Positions 38,597 through 52,203 are shown, counted from the stretch's first letter. The stretch is 64,000 nucleotides of DNA from Candidatus Uhrbacteria bacterium (GCA_016188425.1 JACPHX010000020.1:1821-65820); one strand, 5' to 3'. Made by a program: numbers and translations. Notes: generated by a model from the sequence alone, not told the origin.

Positions 38597-38624
38597 CCGG
38601 CGGAGCCGGGTCCGGCTCCGCCGG
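38597..38624. repeat. 28-bp palindrome family, intergenic copy (central GGG variant)
   Basis: CCGGCGGAGCCGGGTCCGGCTCCGCCGG. Confidence 0.8.
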
Positions 38625-38625
38625 A

Positions 38626-38649
38626 TAACCGTTAGACGATGGGGCCGTG
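38626..38649. repeat. 24-bp direct repeat, copy 2 (duplicate of the tRNA-Glu 5' end)
   Basis: TAACCGTTAGACGATGGGGCCGTG; flanks the GIY-YIG gene plus the 28-bp palindrome. Confidence 0.8.
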
Positions 38650-38704
38650 GATAAATACACGGCGAAGGGTAACAAATCGTCCGCCATGTTACAATACCAT
38701 TACT

Positions 38705-40375
38705 ATGGGGGACTTGTTTCTTGAGATAGGTTCACTCGTTATTTTGGTGGCGGTGATTTCGTTTGTGGTGCAGTGGTTCCGGCAGCCGCTTATTTTGGCG
38801 TATATCATCGCGGGGATTGTGGCGGGGCCCAGTCTTCTGCATCTGGTTCGTTCCCCCGAGGCATTCGACACGTTTGCGAACATGGGGGTGGTTTTTTTGC
38901 TGTTTACGGTTGGCCTGGGCCTCAATTGGCGGAAAGTAAAAGAGGTGGGAGGGCCCTCGACGCTGATGGGGGTCGGGCAAGTGGTGTTTACCTCCCTCGT
39001 CGGATTTTGCCTTGGGAGCGCGCTTGGGTTCGATTGGCTCACCAGCGTCTACTTGGCGGTAGCTTTTTCCTTTTCCAGCACGATTATCATCATCAAGCAT
39101 CTTTCCGACAAGAATGAACTCGATTCCCTCTACGGGCGCATCAGTGTCGGTTTCCTCCTGGTGCAAGATTTCATTGCCGTGATCCTTCTCCTTCTGTTGC
39201 GCACGGTTGAAAAGGGGGCGACGGTTGCGCACATTCTTTCTTCGACCGGAGAAAAACTTCTTTTGTTTTTGGTTGGAGGAGCCCTCGCGCTCCTGATTGC
39301 CCCGCGTATCGTGGCGCGGGCGGCCCGTTCGCAGGAGTTGTTGTTCGTGTTCGCGCTCGCTTGGTGTTTCTTTTTTGTGGCGATGGGCGCGCGGGCGGGG
39401 TTTGGGATGGAGATCGGGGCGCTGGTAGCCGGGGTTTCGCTCTCGGGGACGGTGTATGCCACGGAAATAGCGGCGCGGCTGCGTCCGATCCGCGATTTTT
39501 TTCTCCTGTTGTTTTTTGTGATCTTGGGGACGCATTTGCAGTGGCAGGCGCTTCCAGGGAACTGGGTATCCACGCTCGTCTTTTCCGTGTTCGTCTTGGT
39601 GGGCAATCCGCTGCTGGCGCTCCTCGTTATGCGGCTCTTGGGCTACCATTCAAAAACAGGATGGCGCGCCGGCACCACGGTGGCGCAGATATCCGAGTTT
39701 TCTTTCCTGCTTCTGGCGGTGGGCGTATCGCTTGGGCATATAGATGCCACGAGCGTTGGGGTTGCCACCGGAGTCGCATTGCTGACGATCGGGTTTGGTT
39801 CGTACCTTATCAAATACAACGAGCAGATGTACCGCTGGTTCCGGCCTTTGTTCCATCGTATCCTCCCCTGGCCGGCCTCCCGGTGGCATGGCCGGGCGGG
39901 AAAGACGCCCGAAATATTCCTCTTGGGGTTCCATGGCGTCGGGCAGGTGTTGCTTCAGGGGCTGCATGATTTGCGCCGTTCCTATGTGATTGTAGATTTT
40001 GACCCGCATGTGGTGCGGCGGCTTATGGAACAAGGCGAACCGGTTATGTACGGGGATGCGGGCGATGAAGAATTTTTGCGGGATCAACAGATAAAAAAGG
40101 CCAAGTTCGTCCTCTCTACCATCCCCGAGAAACAGATGAGCATCGATTTGCTCTCGAGTCTTAAAGATATCGGTTTTTCCGGCGGGGTCGTGGTATCGGT
40201 ACCCGAACCAAAAGATGCGGCCGATTGTTATGCGGCGGGCGCGGATTTTGTCATCATTCCAAAGCAATTGGGGGGAGAGAAGGTCAAAGAGATCCTCGAA
40301 CATTCCAAGATTACGGCCCGCTCCTGGCGCTCGCTCGGGAAGGCGGCACAGGCATGCGGAGCCCTTGACGCCTGA
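38705..40375 (+). CDS. CPA2-family cation:proton antiporter (Kef-type) with C-terminal RCK/TrkA-N domain
   Basis: Twelve-helix membrane domain starting MGDLFLEIGSLVILVAVISFVV; C-terminal VIVDFDPHVVRRLMEQGEPVMYGDAGDEEFL (Rossmann, RCK-like). Confidence 0.8.
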   Translation: MGDLFLEIGSLVILVAVISFVVQWFRQPLILAYIIAGIVAGPSLLHLVRSPEAFDTFANMGVVFLLFTVGLGLNWRKVKEVGGPSTLMGVGQVVFTSLVGFCLGSALGFDWLTSVYLAVAFSFSSTIIIIKHLSDKNELDSLYGRISVGFLLVQDFIAVILLLLLRTVEKGATVAHILSSTGEKLLLFLVGGALALLIAPRIVARAARSQELLFVFALAWCFFFVAMGARAGFGMEIGALVAGVSLSGTVYATEIAARLRPIRDFFLLLFFVILGTHLQWQALPGNWVSTLVFSVFVLVGNPLLALLVMRLLGYHSKTGWRAGTTVAQISEFSFLLLAVGVSLGHIDATSVGVATGVALLTIGFGSYLIKYNEQMYRWFRPLFHRILPWPASRWHGRAGKTPEIFLLGFHGVGQVLLQGLHDLRRSYVIVDFDPHVVRRLMEQGEPVMYGDAGDEEFLRDQQIKKAKFVLSTIPEKQMSIDLLSSLKDIGFSGGVVVSVPEPKDAADCYAAGADFVIIPKQLGGEKVKEILEHSKITARSWRSLGKAAQACGALDA

Positions 40376-40453
40376 TCCTATGTCTGTTAGGTTTTTTCGT
40401 CCAGTATGGACTTACCCCCCCCGCAAGGGGGGTGAAGCAGAAAGGAAAAAATA

Positions 40454-50218: not shown

Positions 50219-50259
50219 CACGTCCCCGGCGGGTGGTAGTGTGGATGTTGGAGGTGCGC

Positions 50260-50814
50260 ATGAGTCGCGCGTTTTCATTCTGGGTACAGATCCGTCAGGC
50301 CCTGTACGACCTTGGATGGTGGCTGTCGCAAAAGAGCGACGGCTACAAACTGGGAATCCTCACAGAAGTTCTGGACTCGCTCCAAGACAGCGAGACGTTC
50401 TGCCGGATCCGCGAGCCGCGGCCGTCGGGAGCCAAGAGGAAACAGGCATTCCGCACCATCGAGGGGGCGGCGTACGAAATTGATTTCGTCCGCGGCACAG
50501 AAGATGGCGAGCAGACTGAAACGCTCTTTGTTCATCCGGCCACGGGGGTGGGGTATAGGTTCTGGATCAACTTCCGCGGGCCAGATATCGAGCGGTGGAA
50601 GGTGAATGGGGAGGCTATGCCCGACCCCGAAGGCGAACTCCTGGACGCACTGCGCGACATCCGGCTTTTCGTGGACCGCGTCGTCTGCCAGGAAGAGGAA
50701 ATCGCCCGTGACATGCGCCAAGACGAGGAGAACGGAATGCTGATCTCCCCGCAGATCCCGTCTTGGACGGGGAAGATCGTCGACCCAGCCGAGGAGCCGA
50801 ACAAAGCGTCGTGA
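50260..50814 (+). CDS. hypothetical protein
   Basis: ORF 50215..50814; start at internal M16 (MSRAFSFWVQIRQALYDLGWW...). Confidence 0.4.
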   Translation: MSRAFSFWVQIRQALYDLGWWLSQKSDGYKLGILTEVLDSLQDSETFCRIREPRPSGAKRKQAFRTIEGAAYEIDFVRGTEDGEQTETLFVHPATGVGYRFWINFRGPDIERWKVNGEAMPDPEGELLDALRDIRLFVDRVVCQEEEIARDMRQDEENGMLISPQIPSWTGKIVDPAEEPNKAS

Positions 50815-51145
50815 GGAGTTCCTTGTGGGCTCCTTTTAATTTTGTATGAGATGTTGCTGTTTGAAATAGAATACAGGGGCGGCGGGTTGACAATCCCCCC
50901 TCCTTTTCGCTATCCTTCCCACACTTATTCCTGAACAGATCGCTGGCAATAGGCCCTCGACCCACGTTCATCCTTCTCTTCCGTCCAGTTCGGCGCCTTT
51001 CGGCCTGCAAACGTTTCAGGGTTCCTCGAAATACTTCCGTGTATTCCTCGTCACCCTTCAATGTTTTCGGCTCGAAAGTCGCTCGAACTGTCCAGGAAGA
51101 TAAGGATGAACGGGGGTCTTGGGAGCCGAGGCCGCGAGAGCATCT

Positions 51146-51454
51146 ATGAAAGCAGTCATTACTACAGGCGGGAAGCAATATCTCGTCAAAGAAGGGCAGA
51201 CGATTACGGTCGAGAAGCTGGAGACGGAAGTGGGCAAGCCATTAGTCTTTGAAGCGCTCATGACCGTGAGCGATACAGACGAAGTCACGCTGGGTACCCC
51301 GGTCGTGAAGTCGGTCAAAGTCACTGCCGAAGTGAAAGAGCATGGCCGCGGGGACAAGATCCTGATCGTCAAATACAAACCAAAAGTCCGCTACCGCCGC
51401 CACATCGGCCACCGCCAGCCGTTTACGAAGTTGCTGATTACGAAGATAGCGTAG
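51146..51454 (+). CDS. rplU: 50S ribosomal protein L21
   Basis: MKAVITTGGKQYLVKEGQTITVEKL...HGRGDKILIVKYKPKVRYRRHIGHRQPFTKL, against E. coli L21 MYAVFQSGGKQHRV...[29 protein letters not shown]. Confidence 0.85.
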   Translation: MKAVITTGGKQYLVKEGQTITVEKLETEVGKPLVFEALMTVSDTDEVTLGTPVVKSVKVTAEVKEHGRGDKILIVKYKPKVRYRRHIGHRQPFTKLLITKIA

Positions 51455-51558
51455 GGGAGAGGGCGGGAGGCGGGGGAACGGGAGGGCAAAAAAAGAACGG
51501 TGTTCCGTTCTTTTTTGTTCCTTGTTTTTGTTTTCCTGCCTCCCGTCCTTCGCCTTTC

Positions 51559-52203
51559 TCACGCCGACCGGCGTCCTCGGAGCGCATCTCCAAGCGTCAC
51601 TTCATCCGCATACTCGATCGAGGCGCCAATCGGCAGGCCTCGCGCGAGGCGGGTGACGCGGCGGCCGAGGGGTTGTCCGGCGGAGCCGGATCCGGCTCCG
51701 CCGGACAGGCGGCGGGCGAGGTAGAGCATCGTTGTTTCGCCCGAGGCTGTGGGGGAGAGGGCGAGGATGACTTCCTCAATGGCCGGTTCGGCCTTGAGAC
51801 GGTCTTCCAGGTCGCGCACATGGAGGACGTCGGGGGTGATGCCTTCGATGGGATTCAGCGTCCCTCCCAGGACAAGATAGTAGCCCTTGAAGACGCCGGT
51901 ATCTTCAAACGTAGCGATGTCACGCGATTCTTCGACTACGCACAATAGTCCTGGAACACGGTTTGGATCGCGACAGATGTCGCAGGGGATAGATTGCGAA
52001 AAAGAAAAACAACGCGGACAAATTTTGATGAGTTCCGCGAGCGACAGGAGGTGGCGCGCGATGCGTTCCGTTTCTTGCCGGGGCTGTTTCAGCAAATGAT
52101 AGACGTACCGCAAGGCAGTCTTGGGGCCAACACCGGGAAGTTGGCCTAAAGCCGAAACCACGTTTTGGATTGGTTCAGGAAAACGTCGCACATCACATGC
52201 CAA
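51559..52203 (-). CDS. recR: recombination protein RecR with an in-frame palindrome insertion
   Basis: PEPIQNVVSALGQLPGVGPKTALRYVYHLL (HhH), C4 zinc finger CPRCFSFSQSIPCDIC, Toprim domain. Insertion [11 protein letters not shown] near the C-terminus. Confidence 0.85.
   Translation of the reverse strand: MACDVRRFPEPIQNVVSALGQLPGVGPKTALRYVYHLLKQPRQETERIARHLLSLAELIKICPRCFSFSQSIPCDICRDPNRVPGLLCVVEESRDIATFEDTGVFKGYYLVLGGTLNPIEGITPDVLHVRDLEDRLKAEPAIEEVILALSPTASGETTMLYLARRLSGGAGSGSAGQPLGRRVTRLARGLPIGASIEYADEVTLGDALRGRRSA
51677..51704. repeat. 28-bp palindrome family, copy in recR
   Basis: CCGGCGGAGCCGGATCCGGCTCCGCCGG. Confidence 0.8.

Follow-up and report, generated by a model that had tools for sequence, protein, structure and literature searches.

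A 30-bp double mini-hairpin repeat lying in frame within housekeeping genes of Patescibacteria: a candidate palindromic insertion element

Small hairpin-forming repeats of bacteria include the REP/BIME sequences with their RAYT proteins and the elements derived from IS200/IS605, which are imperfect palindromes probably recognised as single-stranded DNA (ssDNA), leave no target duplication and include solo copies that are mobilised in trans. The Rickettsia palindromic elements (RPEs) occur in RNA genes as well as in protein-coding genes. [quoted passage not shown] In the mitochondrial GC clusters, conserved stems and substitutions concentrated in the loops have been read as functional constraint on the hairpin, and the yeast cluster GC42 consists of 42 nt with an AG target-site duplication (PMC4478555). 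The double-hairpin elements (DHEs) of Allomyces are mentioned in the same paper (Paquin et al. 2000, as cited in PMC4478555). The subject of the present analysis is a repeat found in 64,000 nucleotides of DNA from a Candidatus Uhrbacteria bacterium (GCA_016188425.1, JACPHX010000020.1:1821-65820), hereafter called the window. With a probability that we put at roughly 0.75, judged from sequence comparison, its four copies would represent a tiny selfish insertion element of 30 bp, RPE-like, widespread in Patescibacteria (candidate phyla radiation, CPR) and filtered by translation.

The initial annotation described a perfect 28-bp palindrome in four copies, three of which are read in one frame as a Gly/Ser/Ala linker inside housekeeping genes. 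When the window was scanned with the 28-mer, allowing at most 3 mismatches, exactly four matches were obtained, at the annotated positions 38597, 45113, 49330 and 51677 and with 1, 2, 0 and 0 mismatches, respectively, against 0.00 expected from 100 dinucleotide-preserving shuffles. A scan for structure only (two abutting perfect hairpins, each with a 6-bp stem and a 3-nt loop) returned the same four sites and nothing else in 64 kb. The repeat is thus real as a 28-mer, its true unit being longer: a pyrimidine (Y) always precedes the 28-mer and a purine (R) always follows it, giving a unit of 30 bp, or exactly 10 codons, with Y as its 5' base and R as its 3' base, past which the palindromy seldom reaches. 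Perfection of the palindrome was found in copies 3 and 4; copy 2 has a symmetric GAAGCC/GGCTTC change, and copy 1 has a central mismatch (GGGTCC) and is not perfect.

The window has a mean GC content of 57 % and a positive GC skew throughout. Copy 1 (38596..38625, CCCGGCGGAGCCGGG followed by TCCGGCTCCGCCGGA; like the others it was listed without strand) is an asymmetric variant, in which C-G closes one module and T-A the other. Copy 2 (45112..45141, TCCGGCGAAGCCGGA followed by TCCGGCTTCGCCGGA) encodes residues 609-618 of 639 in the C-terminal tail of DnaK, in phase 0, the phase that starts with the first base of the 30-mer. The identity of this protein is given by its match to solved DnaK structures (E = 2e-225), whose homology stops at about residues 592-615, and the insert sits where the structured lid ends or farther on. 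Copy 3 (49329..49358), of the perfect symmetric form, lies in phase 0 in a gene for a glycosyltransferase of family 4 (GT4; MraY/WecA-type, 48399-49604, Pfam PF00953), in the loop that precedes the conserved D-R-x-H-x-H segment. Copy 4 (51676..51705), likewise perfectly symmetric, is in phase 0 of recR (51559-52203, minus strand; homology to 1VDD/2V1C, E = 2e-48), between the last helix of the Toprim domain and the C-terminal strand. Translation confirmed a single frame, that of the Gly/Ser/Ala linker, for the three coding copies. The four copies lie inside 13.1 kb (38596-51705) of the 64 kb, for which a hand-calculated p of about 0.03 applies if they were randomly placed; such grouping may reflect local hopping or chance.

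A species-representative genome collection was scanned with the 28-mer, three of its positions being left free. The resulting census of this first family comprises 119 copies, that is the matches listed (at least 106 loci) together with the window; the counts given below for the family refer to these listed copies, and copy numbers are lower bounds. At least 106 stretches from 39 assemblies were involved, and nearly all hosts were deposited as Uhrbacteria, Kerfeldbacteria, Doudnabacteria, Microgenomates, Saccharibacteria, Parcubacteria or 'Patescibacteria group'; two matches in Actinobacteria look like chance GC-rich matches. The density is low and patchy, with four copies in the 64 kb of the window and at least 1-4 matches on contigs of 366-857 kb. 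Copies are near-identical across genomes whose housekeeping proteins are just 55-80 % identical, and while the GC content of the hosts ranges from 38 to 61 %, that of the element remains near 80 %. Where copies form nearby pairs, a search of the intervening DNA for an autonomous element gave ordinary genes only (RsmH, MetK, FtsK and a Lys-rich protein). No match was found in 2.9 million viral contigs, and carriage by phage was rejected; an Rfam search matched no family except tRNA. Some element-rich metagenome-assembled genomes (MAGs; L009, L013, L024, L035, L046 and others, from CAYHWG01 and similar TPA (third-party annotation) assemblies) are deposited as 'uncultured Gammaproteobacteria'. 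These have 44-49 % GC, genes 45-66 % identical to CPR genes and the cassette of a GIY-YIG nuclease gene and tRNA-Glu known from CPR loci (see below), and they are probably mislabelled Patescibacteria.

The layout of the element is that of two abutting 15-nt hairpins, each with a 6-bp stem and a 3-nt loop, (Y-CCGGC-GNA-GCCGG-R)(Y-CCGGC-TNC-GCCGG-R), and each 15-mer is predicted to fold as a 6-bp stem with a triloop. The closing bases at positions 1, 15, 16 and 30 were T,A,T,A in 46 copies, C,G,T,A in 36, T,A,C,G in 28 and of other kinds in 9 (n = 119). Pairs 1-15 and 16-30 covary as T-A or C-G, and the classes C,G,T,A and T,A,C,G are a single asymmetric variant in two orientations (64 copies). 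The pairs of the long palindrome, 1-30, 15-16 and 8-23, are often mismatched and do not covary, positions 8 and 23 varying independently, and a long hairpin of 28-34 bp was rejected as the functional unit on these grounds. When both structures were compared on 41 distinct 30-mers, the double hairpin, ((((((...))))))((((((...)))))), had 99.0 % of its cells paired, 36 compensatory cells (at 7 pairs) and a covariation score of 0.241, against 91.4 %, 20 and 0.139 for the long hairpin. Rare variants compensate changes in the inner stem within one module (CCCG...CGGG, CCAGG...CCTGG), by which the long palindrome is broken and both hairpins are kept. This covariation supports the double mini-hairpin, instead of the annotated perfect palindrome, as the conserved feature, and the perfect palindrome follows from the two modules sharing their stems and having complementary loops.

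The middle base of each triloop is the sole freely variable position. The order of the modules was GNA and then TNC in 112 of 112 pairs, and solo modules and triples were essentially absent. With 224 of 234 modules paired, the order fixed and no triples, a 15-nt module moving as an independent unit was rejected. On either strand the 5' module reads GGC-GNA-GCC (N being G, A, T or C) and thus contains GCGNAGC, published as the motif of an extraordinarily stable 'mini-hairpin DNA' in which a GNA triloop is closed by C-G (PMC13037366, PMC3201870). By its sequence, the element falls within the definition of this motif.

For the census of reading frames, stop-to-stop open reading frames (ORFs) were compared in all six frames at the 119 copies, about two-thirds of which lie inside ORFs. 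Where one ORF was dominant, 64 copies were in phase 0 (TCC GGC ...), 4 in phase 1 and 4 in phase 2; of the remainder, 30 were in no ORF of at least 120 codons and 17 were ambiguous. For 64:4:4 against 1:1:1, chi-square is about 100 (calculated by hand). All three frames of the 30-mer are free of stops, so the bias is no trivial product of stop codons, and confusion of strands does not affect the count because the codon-aligned antisense frame has the same phase. In phase 0 the element, TCC GGC GNA GCC GGA TCC GGC TNC GCC GGA, is read as S-G-x-A-G-S-G-x-A-G. The eight off-phase cases comprise four that precede a plausible start, at the far 5' end of their ORF, as well as two in tRNA fragments and one in an implausible ORF. 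The lone genuine-looking off-phase copy among the listed matches is that of L045, in a D-rich protein of low complexity, where it reads PAEPDPATPG. Across genomes the frames are therefore not spread evenly, and the proposal of the initial annotation that the repeat persists where it is translationally benign gains support from these phases and from exceptions that are mostly non-coding. Diverged copies within genes are likewise in phase 0. A Lys/Ala-rich, histone-H1-like protein (L030, 5706-6431) has two decayed copies 81 bp apart, PGVARSGSAG and PRTAGSGSAG, which indicates that copies persist and decay in frame.

That the segments were inserted, and are not a conserved protein motif, is seen best in RecR. 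Its alignment to the RecR of D. radiodurans (1VDD/2V1C) has an exact 10-residue gap at the insert, and of the 120 top-ranking RecR homologues, which are 55-65 % identical and have a modal length of 200 aa, that of the window alone (210 aa) contains the segment, the other 119 being without it. Exact 10-residue gaps between conserved flanking residues were found in at least seven orthologue pairs among the loci, including L024/L097, L026/L059, L074/L071, L091/L094, L003/L106 and L013/L059; for copy 3, the GT4 orthologue of L086, which lacks the segment, has a gap of 13 residues. The orthologue comparison proposed in the initial annotation thus bore out insertion, at sites in a tail (DnaK) and in a loop (GT4). 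Copies were found in both orientations and in coding and noncoding DNA, in tRNA sequences the filled version is longer than the empty one by exactly 30 bp, without a duplicated flank, and the GC content of the element, about 80 % in hosts of 38-61 %, is of the same tenor. Occupancy also differs between relatives: L020 and L033, whose orthologues are 77-83 % identical, each have a copy that is absent from the other, so occupancy turns over faster than these genomes diverge. In the DnaK tail the element is present in four genomes (window, L037, L052 and L102) as different variants and at differing distances to the C-terminus, a sign that this tail tolerates insertions and has been hit repeatedly.

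The same data bear on the idea that the repeat is a signal of benefit to the host and kept by selection, such as a protein-binding site, an uptake-type signal, a hairpin for RNA stability or processing, or a terminator. Covariation in the stems and conservation across deep lineages do show constraint on the nucleic acid, and an RNA hairpin could act at many of the noncoding copies, which adjoin tRNA genes or shortly precede an ORF. Haemophilus uptake sequences, too, favour particular reading frames. Copies of the repeat are, however, exact +30-bp insertions and not substitutions, the occupied sites are not conserved between related genomes, and coding copies have no consistent position relative to the start or end of the gene. 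Further points against a host signal are that no U-tract follows the hairpin, that the density is low and patchy, that Rfam gave no match and that a copy has no obvious use in a dead tRNA fragment. We regard such a signal as very improbable.

The sites of insertion share a preference. T at -2 and/or A at +2 was found beside the 30-mer in 113 of the 119 copies (both in 28, one in 85 and neither in 6), for which about 44 % is expected by chance, and the ratio of 28 both-sided to 85 one-sided copies corresponds to the 25:75 split expected under a one-sided target rule. G at -2 is rare, about 0-2 %, in coding and noncoding copies alike (0 % in the noncoding ones), and because its avoidance holds in noncoding copies too, the preference acts at the DNA level. 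Within genes the target mark was antisense in 43 copies and sense in 4, following the orientation of the gene and not GC skew; copies outside genes were split 18 to 11 relative to GC skew. A bias of the mark towards one replication strand was considered and set aside as confounded with gene orientation. The codon following the insert was NAN (K, E, D, N or Q) in 93 % of coding copies and the preceding codon was most often Lys, flanks that we read as the target rule combined with selection for a hydrophilic, surface-exposed context. For the asymmetric variant the orientation of the target mark was 30 to 13, a modest preference.

Copy 1 had been annotated as intergenic, beside a GIY-YIG cassette. 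It does adjoin the GIY-YIG ORF, ending 21 nt upstream of its ATG; the DNA that it interrupts is a duplicated 5' fragment of tRNA-Glu(CTC). An intact tRNA-Glu(CTC) is encoded at 38252..38326 on the minus strand (ARAGORN; Rfam tRNA, 61.9 bits), with, upstream of it on the same strand, the ORF of a small stand-alone GIY-YIG nuclease of 89 aa (38305..38574, minus; Pfam PF01541, E = 2.4e-13), which is AT-rich relative to the window and overlaps the 5' end of the intact tRNA with its own 3' end and stop codon. The displaced fragment (38587..38649, minus), recognised by comparison with the intact tRNA, comprises a 3-nt leader and positions 1 to about 30. On the minus strand, copy 1 splits GGTTA from GGACGGCAC in this fragment, and the two are contiguous in the intact tRNA at 38305/38306. 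With the intact tRNA as an internal reference for the empty site, copy 1 is a clean insertion of 30 bp, with no target duplication and no deletion.

About 20 of the roughly 30 noncoding copies of this family lie in partial copies of tRNA genes that adjoin the intact tRNA, among the matches listed. Glu was the tRNA in 11 cases, and Ser, Arg, His, Trp and Val were also involved. The sites are in D-, anticodon- or T-loops, e.g. GGTT^CRAAT, TTTT^CATCC and GTAGTT^CAAC. In ten loci, including the window, a displaced 5' fragment of tRNA-Glu is directly upstream of a GIY-YIG ORF that runs at its 3' end into a rebuilt tRNA; homologues of the GIY-YIG protein of the window occur in 10 loci with the element, at distances of 11-81 nt from it. 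Two possibilities may be named for this link: either tRNA DNA, being highly transcribed and rich in hairpins, is a preferred site and copies last only where the tRNA gene is dead, or there is a functional connection with the nuclease. GIY-YIG ORFs of about 80-90 aa inside tRNA genes (Glu, Arg or Met), AT-rich relative to the host, form a recurrent, mobile-looking cassette in their own right, in which the displaced tRNA 5' fragment (about 30-41 nt) is upstream and the last codons and stop of the ORF are encoded by the rebuilt intact tRNA. It was observed in the window (38252-38649, minus) and in L012, L017, L069, L078, L082, L085, L086, L090 and L107-L112. A role of the palindromes in shielding this cassette from deletion between direct repeats was unsupported, since perfect repeats of 24-35 nt remain (window, L017).

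These loci invite the explanation that the small tRNA-riding GIY-YIG nucleases have the element as their cognate substrate in the manner of REP and RAYT, one copy being kept beside the gene and solo copies being cut or mobilised in trans. All-against-all clustering of the ORFs of the listed loci (about 8 kb each) gave GIY-YIG as the sole gene family that recurs within 200 bp of copies (at least eight loci), and the element lies 6-27 nt, in one locus 81 nt, upstream of the ATG. In L017, identical copies in anticodon-loop sequence flank the GIY-YIG gene and tRNA-Glu on both sides. Six GIY-YIG homologues (L107-L112) were sampled regardless of the element, and all four of those with a displaced tRNA fragment carry a GC-rich palindrome: L107 agrees with the window in both element and site, L110 has a second family (described below) at TTTT^CATCC of tRNA-Glu(TTC), and L109 and L112 have the 20-bp perfect palindrome CCTGCCTGCCGGCAGGCAGG in displaced fragments of tRNA-Arg and tRNA-Met, respectively. 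L108 has no recognisable tRNA fragment and L111 no tRNA. GIY-YIG enzymes, moreover, include structure-specific nucleases (SLX1) and restriction enzymes that cut TCN^GA or CCGC^GG. Against this explanation, the position of the element in the tRNA fragment varies over at least six distinct sites, which implies repeated independent hits and means that the element is no fixed end of the cassette, and similar GIY-YIG proteins (about 50 % identity) adjoin different palindrome families. Fragments bearing the element are also present without a GIY-YIG gene nearby (L103, L070, L019, L073 and L004), just 1 of 125 listed copies of the second family is beside such a gene, and strand transfer is not known for GIY-YIG nucleases. 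On balance we consider this explanation unlikely.

Three further observations concern RNA genes. The palindrome CCTGCCTGCCGGCAGGCAGG was located upstream of the GIY-YIG ORFs at 1410-1480 in L109 and 1440-1470 in L112, with traces in L025, L034 and L062; as 20 bp is not a multiple of three, it is expected to be excluded from genes. In L054, a diverged element (CCCGGCGGAGCCGGG followed by TCCGGTTAGCCGGA, 7053-7082) is inside a predicted tmRNA gene of 421 nt (6729-7149), which recalls the insertions of RPEs in RNA genes, and a canonical copy (6645-6674) lies about 55 nt upstream of the gene. In L004 (2300-2420), the intact tRNA-Trp has downstream of it a near-full-length pseudo-tRNA-Trp, whose D-loop contains the element and whose T-loop contains an unrelated hairpin, CCCCGGACTGCGATCCGGGG.

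The second family is a 30-mer with CCGCC stems that was met in GIY-YIG contexts, TCCGCC-AAA-GGCGGA followed by TCCGCC-TCC-GGCGGA. For its census, metagenomes were scanned for CCGCCNNNGGCGGRYCCGCCNNNGGCGG with the loops left free, giving 125 copies among the matches listed (at least 120 stretches), to which the following counts refer. The phases were 67:9:6, with 29 copies noncoding. Closing pairs covary between T-A and C-G as in the first family, being T-A/T-A in 88 copies, T-A/C-G in 20 and C-G/T-A in 11. The loops are free and not mutually complementary, except for an A at loop position 3 in 93 %; since this is a third codon position, the constraint acts on the nucleic acid and not on the protein. 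The target is TTT^...^AAA (T in 54 %, 78 % and 63 % at -3 to -1), with the mark on both sides in 63 % of copies, and in coding copies Phe, Leu or Ile precedes the insert and Lys follows it. Eight of the noncoding copies are in or beside loops of tRNA fragments. The second family is an independent replication of the behaviour of the first.

These results also weigh against explanations without biology of their own for the DNA, namely an artefact of assembly or library construction (a linker-like sequence centred on BamHI) or convergent selection of proteins for a Gly/Ser/Ala linker. The central GGATCC and the Gly/Ser/Ala reading do resemble engineered linkers. Against an artefact, the copies come from 39 assemblies of many unrelated projects and assemblers within one bacterial radiation, show compensatory variants, lie in both orientations and in noncoding DNA and tRNA fragments, and are absent from the viral contigs; the loop A at the third codon position of the second family is inexplicable by selection on the protein. 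We give such explanations next to no credence.

When 1.6 Mb of collected sequence was scanned for the structure only, 246 of the 247 hits belonged to one superfamily, hybrids included, and 1 was due to chance. Its formula is (TCC-SSS-NNN-SSS'-GGA) twice, read as S-x-x-x-G-S-x-x-x-G. A third family, TCTCCC-NNN-GGGAGA, also among these hits, was observed in four copies on metagenome contig L226 (645, 1710, 4781 and 7013) as TCTCCC-TTC-GGGAGA followed by TCTCCC-GCA-GGGAGA, its loop polarity (TNN and then NNA) being opposite to that of families 1 and 2. A farther-reaching proposal is that Patescibacteria host a superfamily (TCC-SSS-NNA-SSS'-GGA)(TCC-SSS-TNN-SSS'-GGA) that moves as ssDNA by a new mechanism, possibly driven by GIY-YIG, and is in conflict with tRNA genes. 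We hold this to be doubtful; if true, it would be a nuclease-based counterpart of REP/RAYT that remodels loops of essential proteins, and the GIY-YIG cassettes that carry tRNA halves would be part of the same conflict.

Other hairpins were seen beside these families. Those of the type CCCTCTCC-N3-5-GGAGAGGG or CCCCTCCT...AGGAGGGG are abundant in many CPR loci, with variable loops, and may represent either terminators or one more repeat family. In the window, a unique 40-bp perfect palindrome, CATACTGTGGCCAAGGGGCATGCCCCTTGGCCACAGTATG, is at 49640-49679, 36 nt past the stop of the GT4 gene, with no repeat in the other loci examined, and a terminator-like hairpin at 49701-49722 is separate from it.

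The comparisons show that the element inserts precisely as 30 bp, without target-site duplication, at preferred AT-rich sites (T at -2 and/or A at +2; TTT^AAA for the second family), and that protein genes, tRNA-fragment loops and a tmRNA gene all serve as sites. Under the preferred reading, that of a selfish element filtered by translation, a length that is a multiple of three and the lack of stops in any frame would mean that the protein is never truncated. Only the phase giving a flexible linker of Ser, Gly and Ala would be tolerated, Pro-rich and Arg-rich insertions being purged by selection, which would also remove insertions in buried positions and in functional tRNAs. The survivors would be those that lie in essential proteins within a disordered tail or a loop at the surface, with Lys, Glu or Asp flanks, and those in dead tRNA fragments. 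With lower confidence, the active form may be ssDNA folded as a double hairpin, as the covarying stems, the free middle base of the loops and the GCGNAGC motif suggest. A trans-acting enzyme would recognise and move this form, the closest mechanism being hairpin-dependent transposition of ssDNA without target duplication, again with lower confidence; the small GIY-YIG nuclease is the only candidate gene for such an enzyme next to copies. The asymmetric variant is inherited intact (64 copies), which speaks for templated, strand-faithful copying and disfavours a route in which excised palindromic strands anneal to themselves as a blunt duplex.

Several points weigh against this reading. Neither a transposase nor any other enzyme could be linked with the element, and movement rests on comparative data and not on polymorphism among strains, the closest RecR in the databases being just 65 % identical. 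By predicted energy, the symmetric 30-mer folds best as the long hairpin (-18.7 kcal/mol; two hairpins reach about -12), and the claim of a double hairpin rests on covariation for this reason. The loci were found by near-exact patterns, so that conservation within the element is in part circular where the patterns were fixed; left free were positions 1, 8, 15, 23 and 30 and the loops of the second family. Coding status, and with it translation of the insert, was judged from ORF length. Selection alone must account for a bias of about 30:1 against the Pro-rich frame, which is a strong demand, and random insertion plus purifying selection leaves the extreme enrichment in displaced tRNA fragments unexplained. 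Insertion into pre-existing hairpin loops was not borne out at coding sites, in a weak test: 36 % of sites compared with 26 %, the sites being less structured than the controls.

If confirmed, this would be the smallest family of in-frame mobile elements that we are aware of in bacteria and the first such repeat family reported for CPR. No description turned up in a full-text literature search, which looked for the sequence as well as for CPR repeats of palindromic or hairpin type; its coverage was incomplete, and the element may have been described before. Genomes of about 1 Mb with almost no spare DNA would then have been colonised by selfish DNA inside DnaK, RecR, MetK, FtsK and aminoacyl-tRNA synthetases, and the copies would provide a natural map of insertion-tolerant sites in essential proteins. 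With its length of exactly 10 codons, its stop-free design and its Ser/Gly/Ala frame, the element appears to have been shaped to be translationally benign. Clean insertion at sites of the TTT^AAA type and covarying mini-hairpins may point to a novel transposition chemistry, on which the link to tRNA fragments and GIY-YIG genes offers a concrete handle. In practice, the motif is a marker of lineage and also a source of noise in annotation, through spurious length variation, broken tRNA predictions and mislabelled MAGs.

In comparison with the known systems, the element resembles MITEs in being non-autonomous and multi-copy, in forming hairpins in transcripts and in lying sometimes in frame in genes (PMC10969869). 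It differs from the classical ones (Correia, ERIC, Chunjie and others) in its 30 bp, about 80 % GC, lack of target duplication and mostly intragenic location. Uptake sequences accumulate by substitution to about one copy per kb, whereas the element consists of +30-bp insertions, at four copies in 64 kb. With REP and IS200/IS605 it has in common the hairpin and the absence of target duplication, and perhaps also a short specific adjoining sequence, solo copies mobilised in trans and a copy beside the gene of a putative enzyme. REPs are, however, extragenic and have a GTAG head, whereas the element lies mostly in ORFs and has no such head; the ends of IS200/IS605 are longer, their cleavage is away from the foot of the hairpin and their target is one-sided, unlike the two-sided target of the second family (TTT^AAA). 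No HUH/Y1 (RAYT) transposase turned up within 200 bp of copies in the ORF clustering, which included no profile search for Y1.

GC clusters and DHEs are, like the element, short, GC-rich, mobile hairpins in more AT-rich genomes, and the DHEs share its double-hairpin layout; two adjacent conserved hairpins with variable loops were found here as well. Those elements are organellar and mostly intergenic, whereas the present one occurs in bacterial MAGs, is mostly intragenic, has an exact length of 10 codons and makes no duplication. The closest likeness in behaviour is to RPEs, as palindromic repeats in frame in unrelated housekeeping genes, with one frame per family, in reduced genomes; in-frame insertion in unrelated genes with one frame per family was found for the element too (64:4:4, exact 10-residue gaps). 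RPEs (RPE-1 to RPE-10) are about 100-150 bp long, encode peptides of 30-50 residues and belong to Alphaproteobacteria, whereas the element has 30 bp and 10 residues and belongs to Patescibacteria. Its two mini-hairpins with triloops, its AT-rich target, the lack of target duplication and its link to tRNA fragments set it apart from RPEs by description. The RPE-like behaviour proposed at the outset is thus retained, for an element that is a double mini-hairpin and not a palindrome, and to which a target preference at the DNA level and a link to tRNA and GIY-YIG genes have been added.

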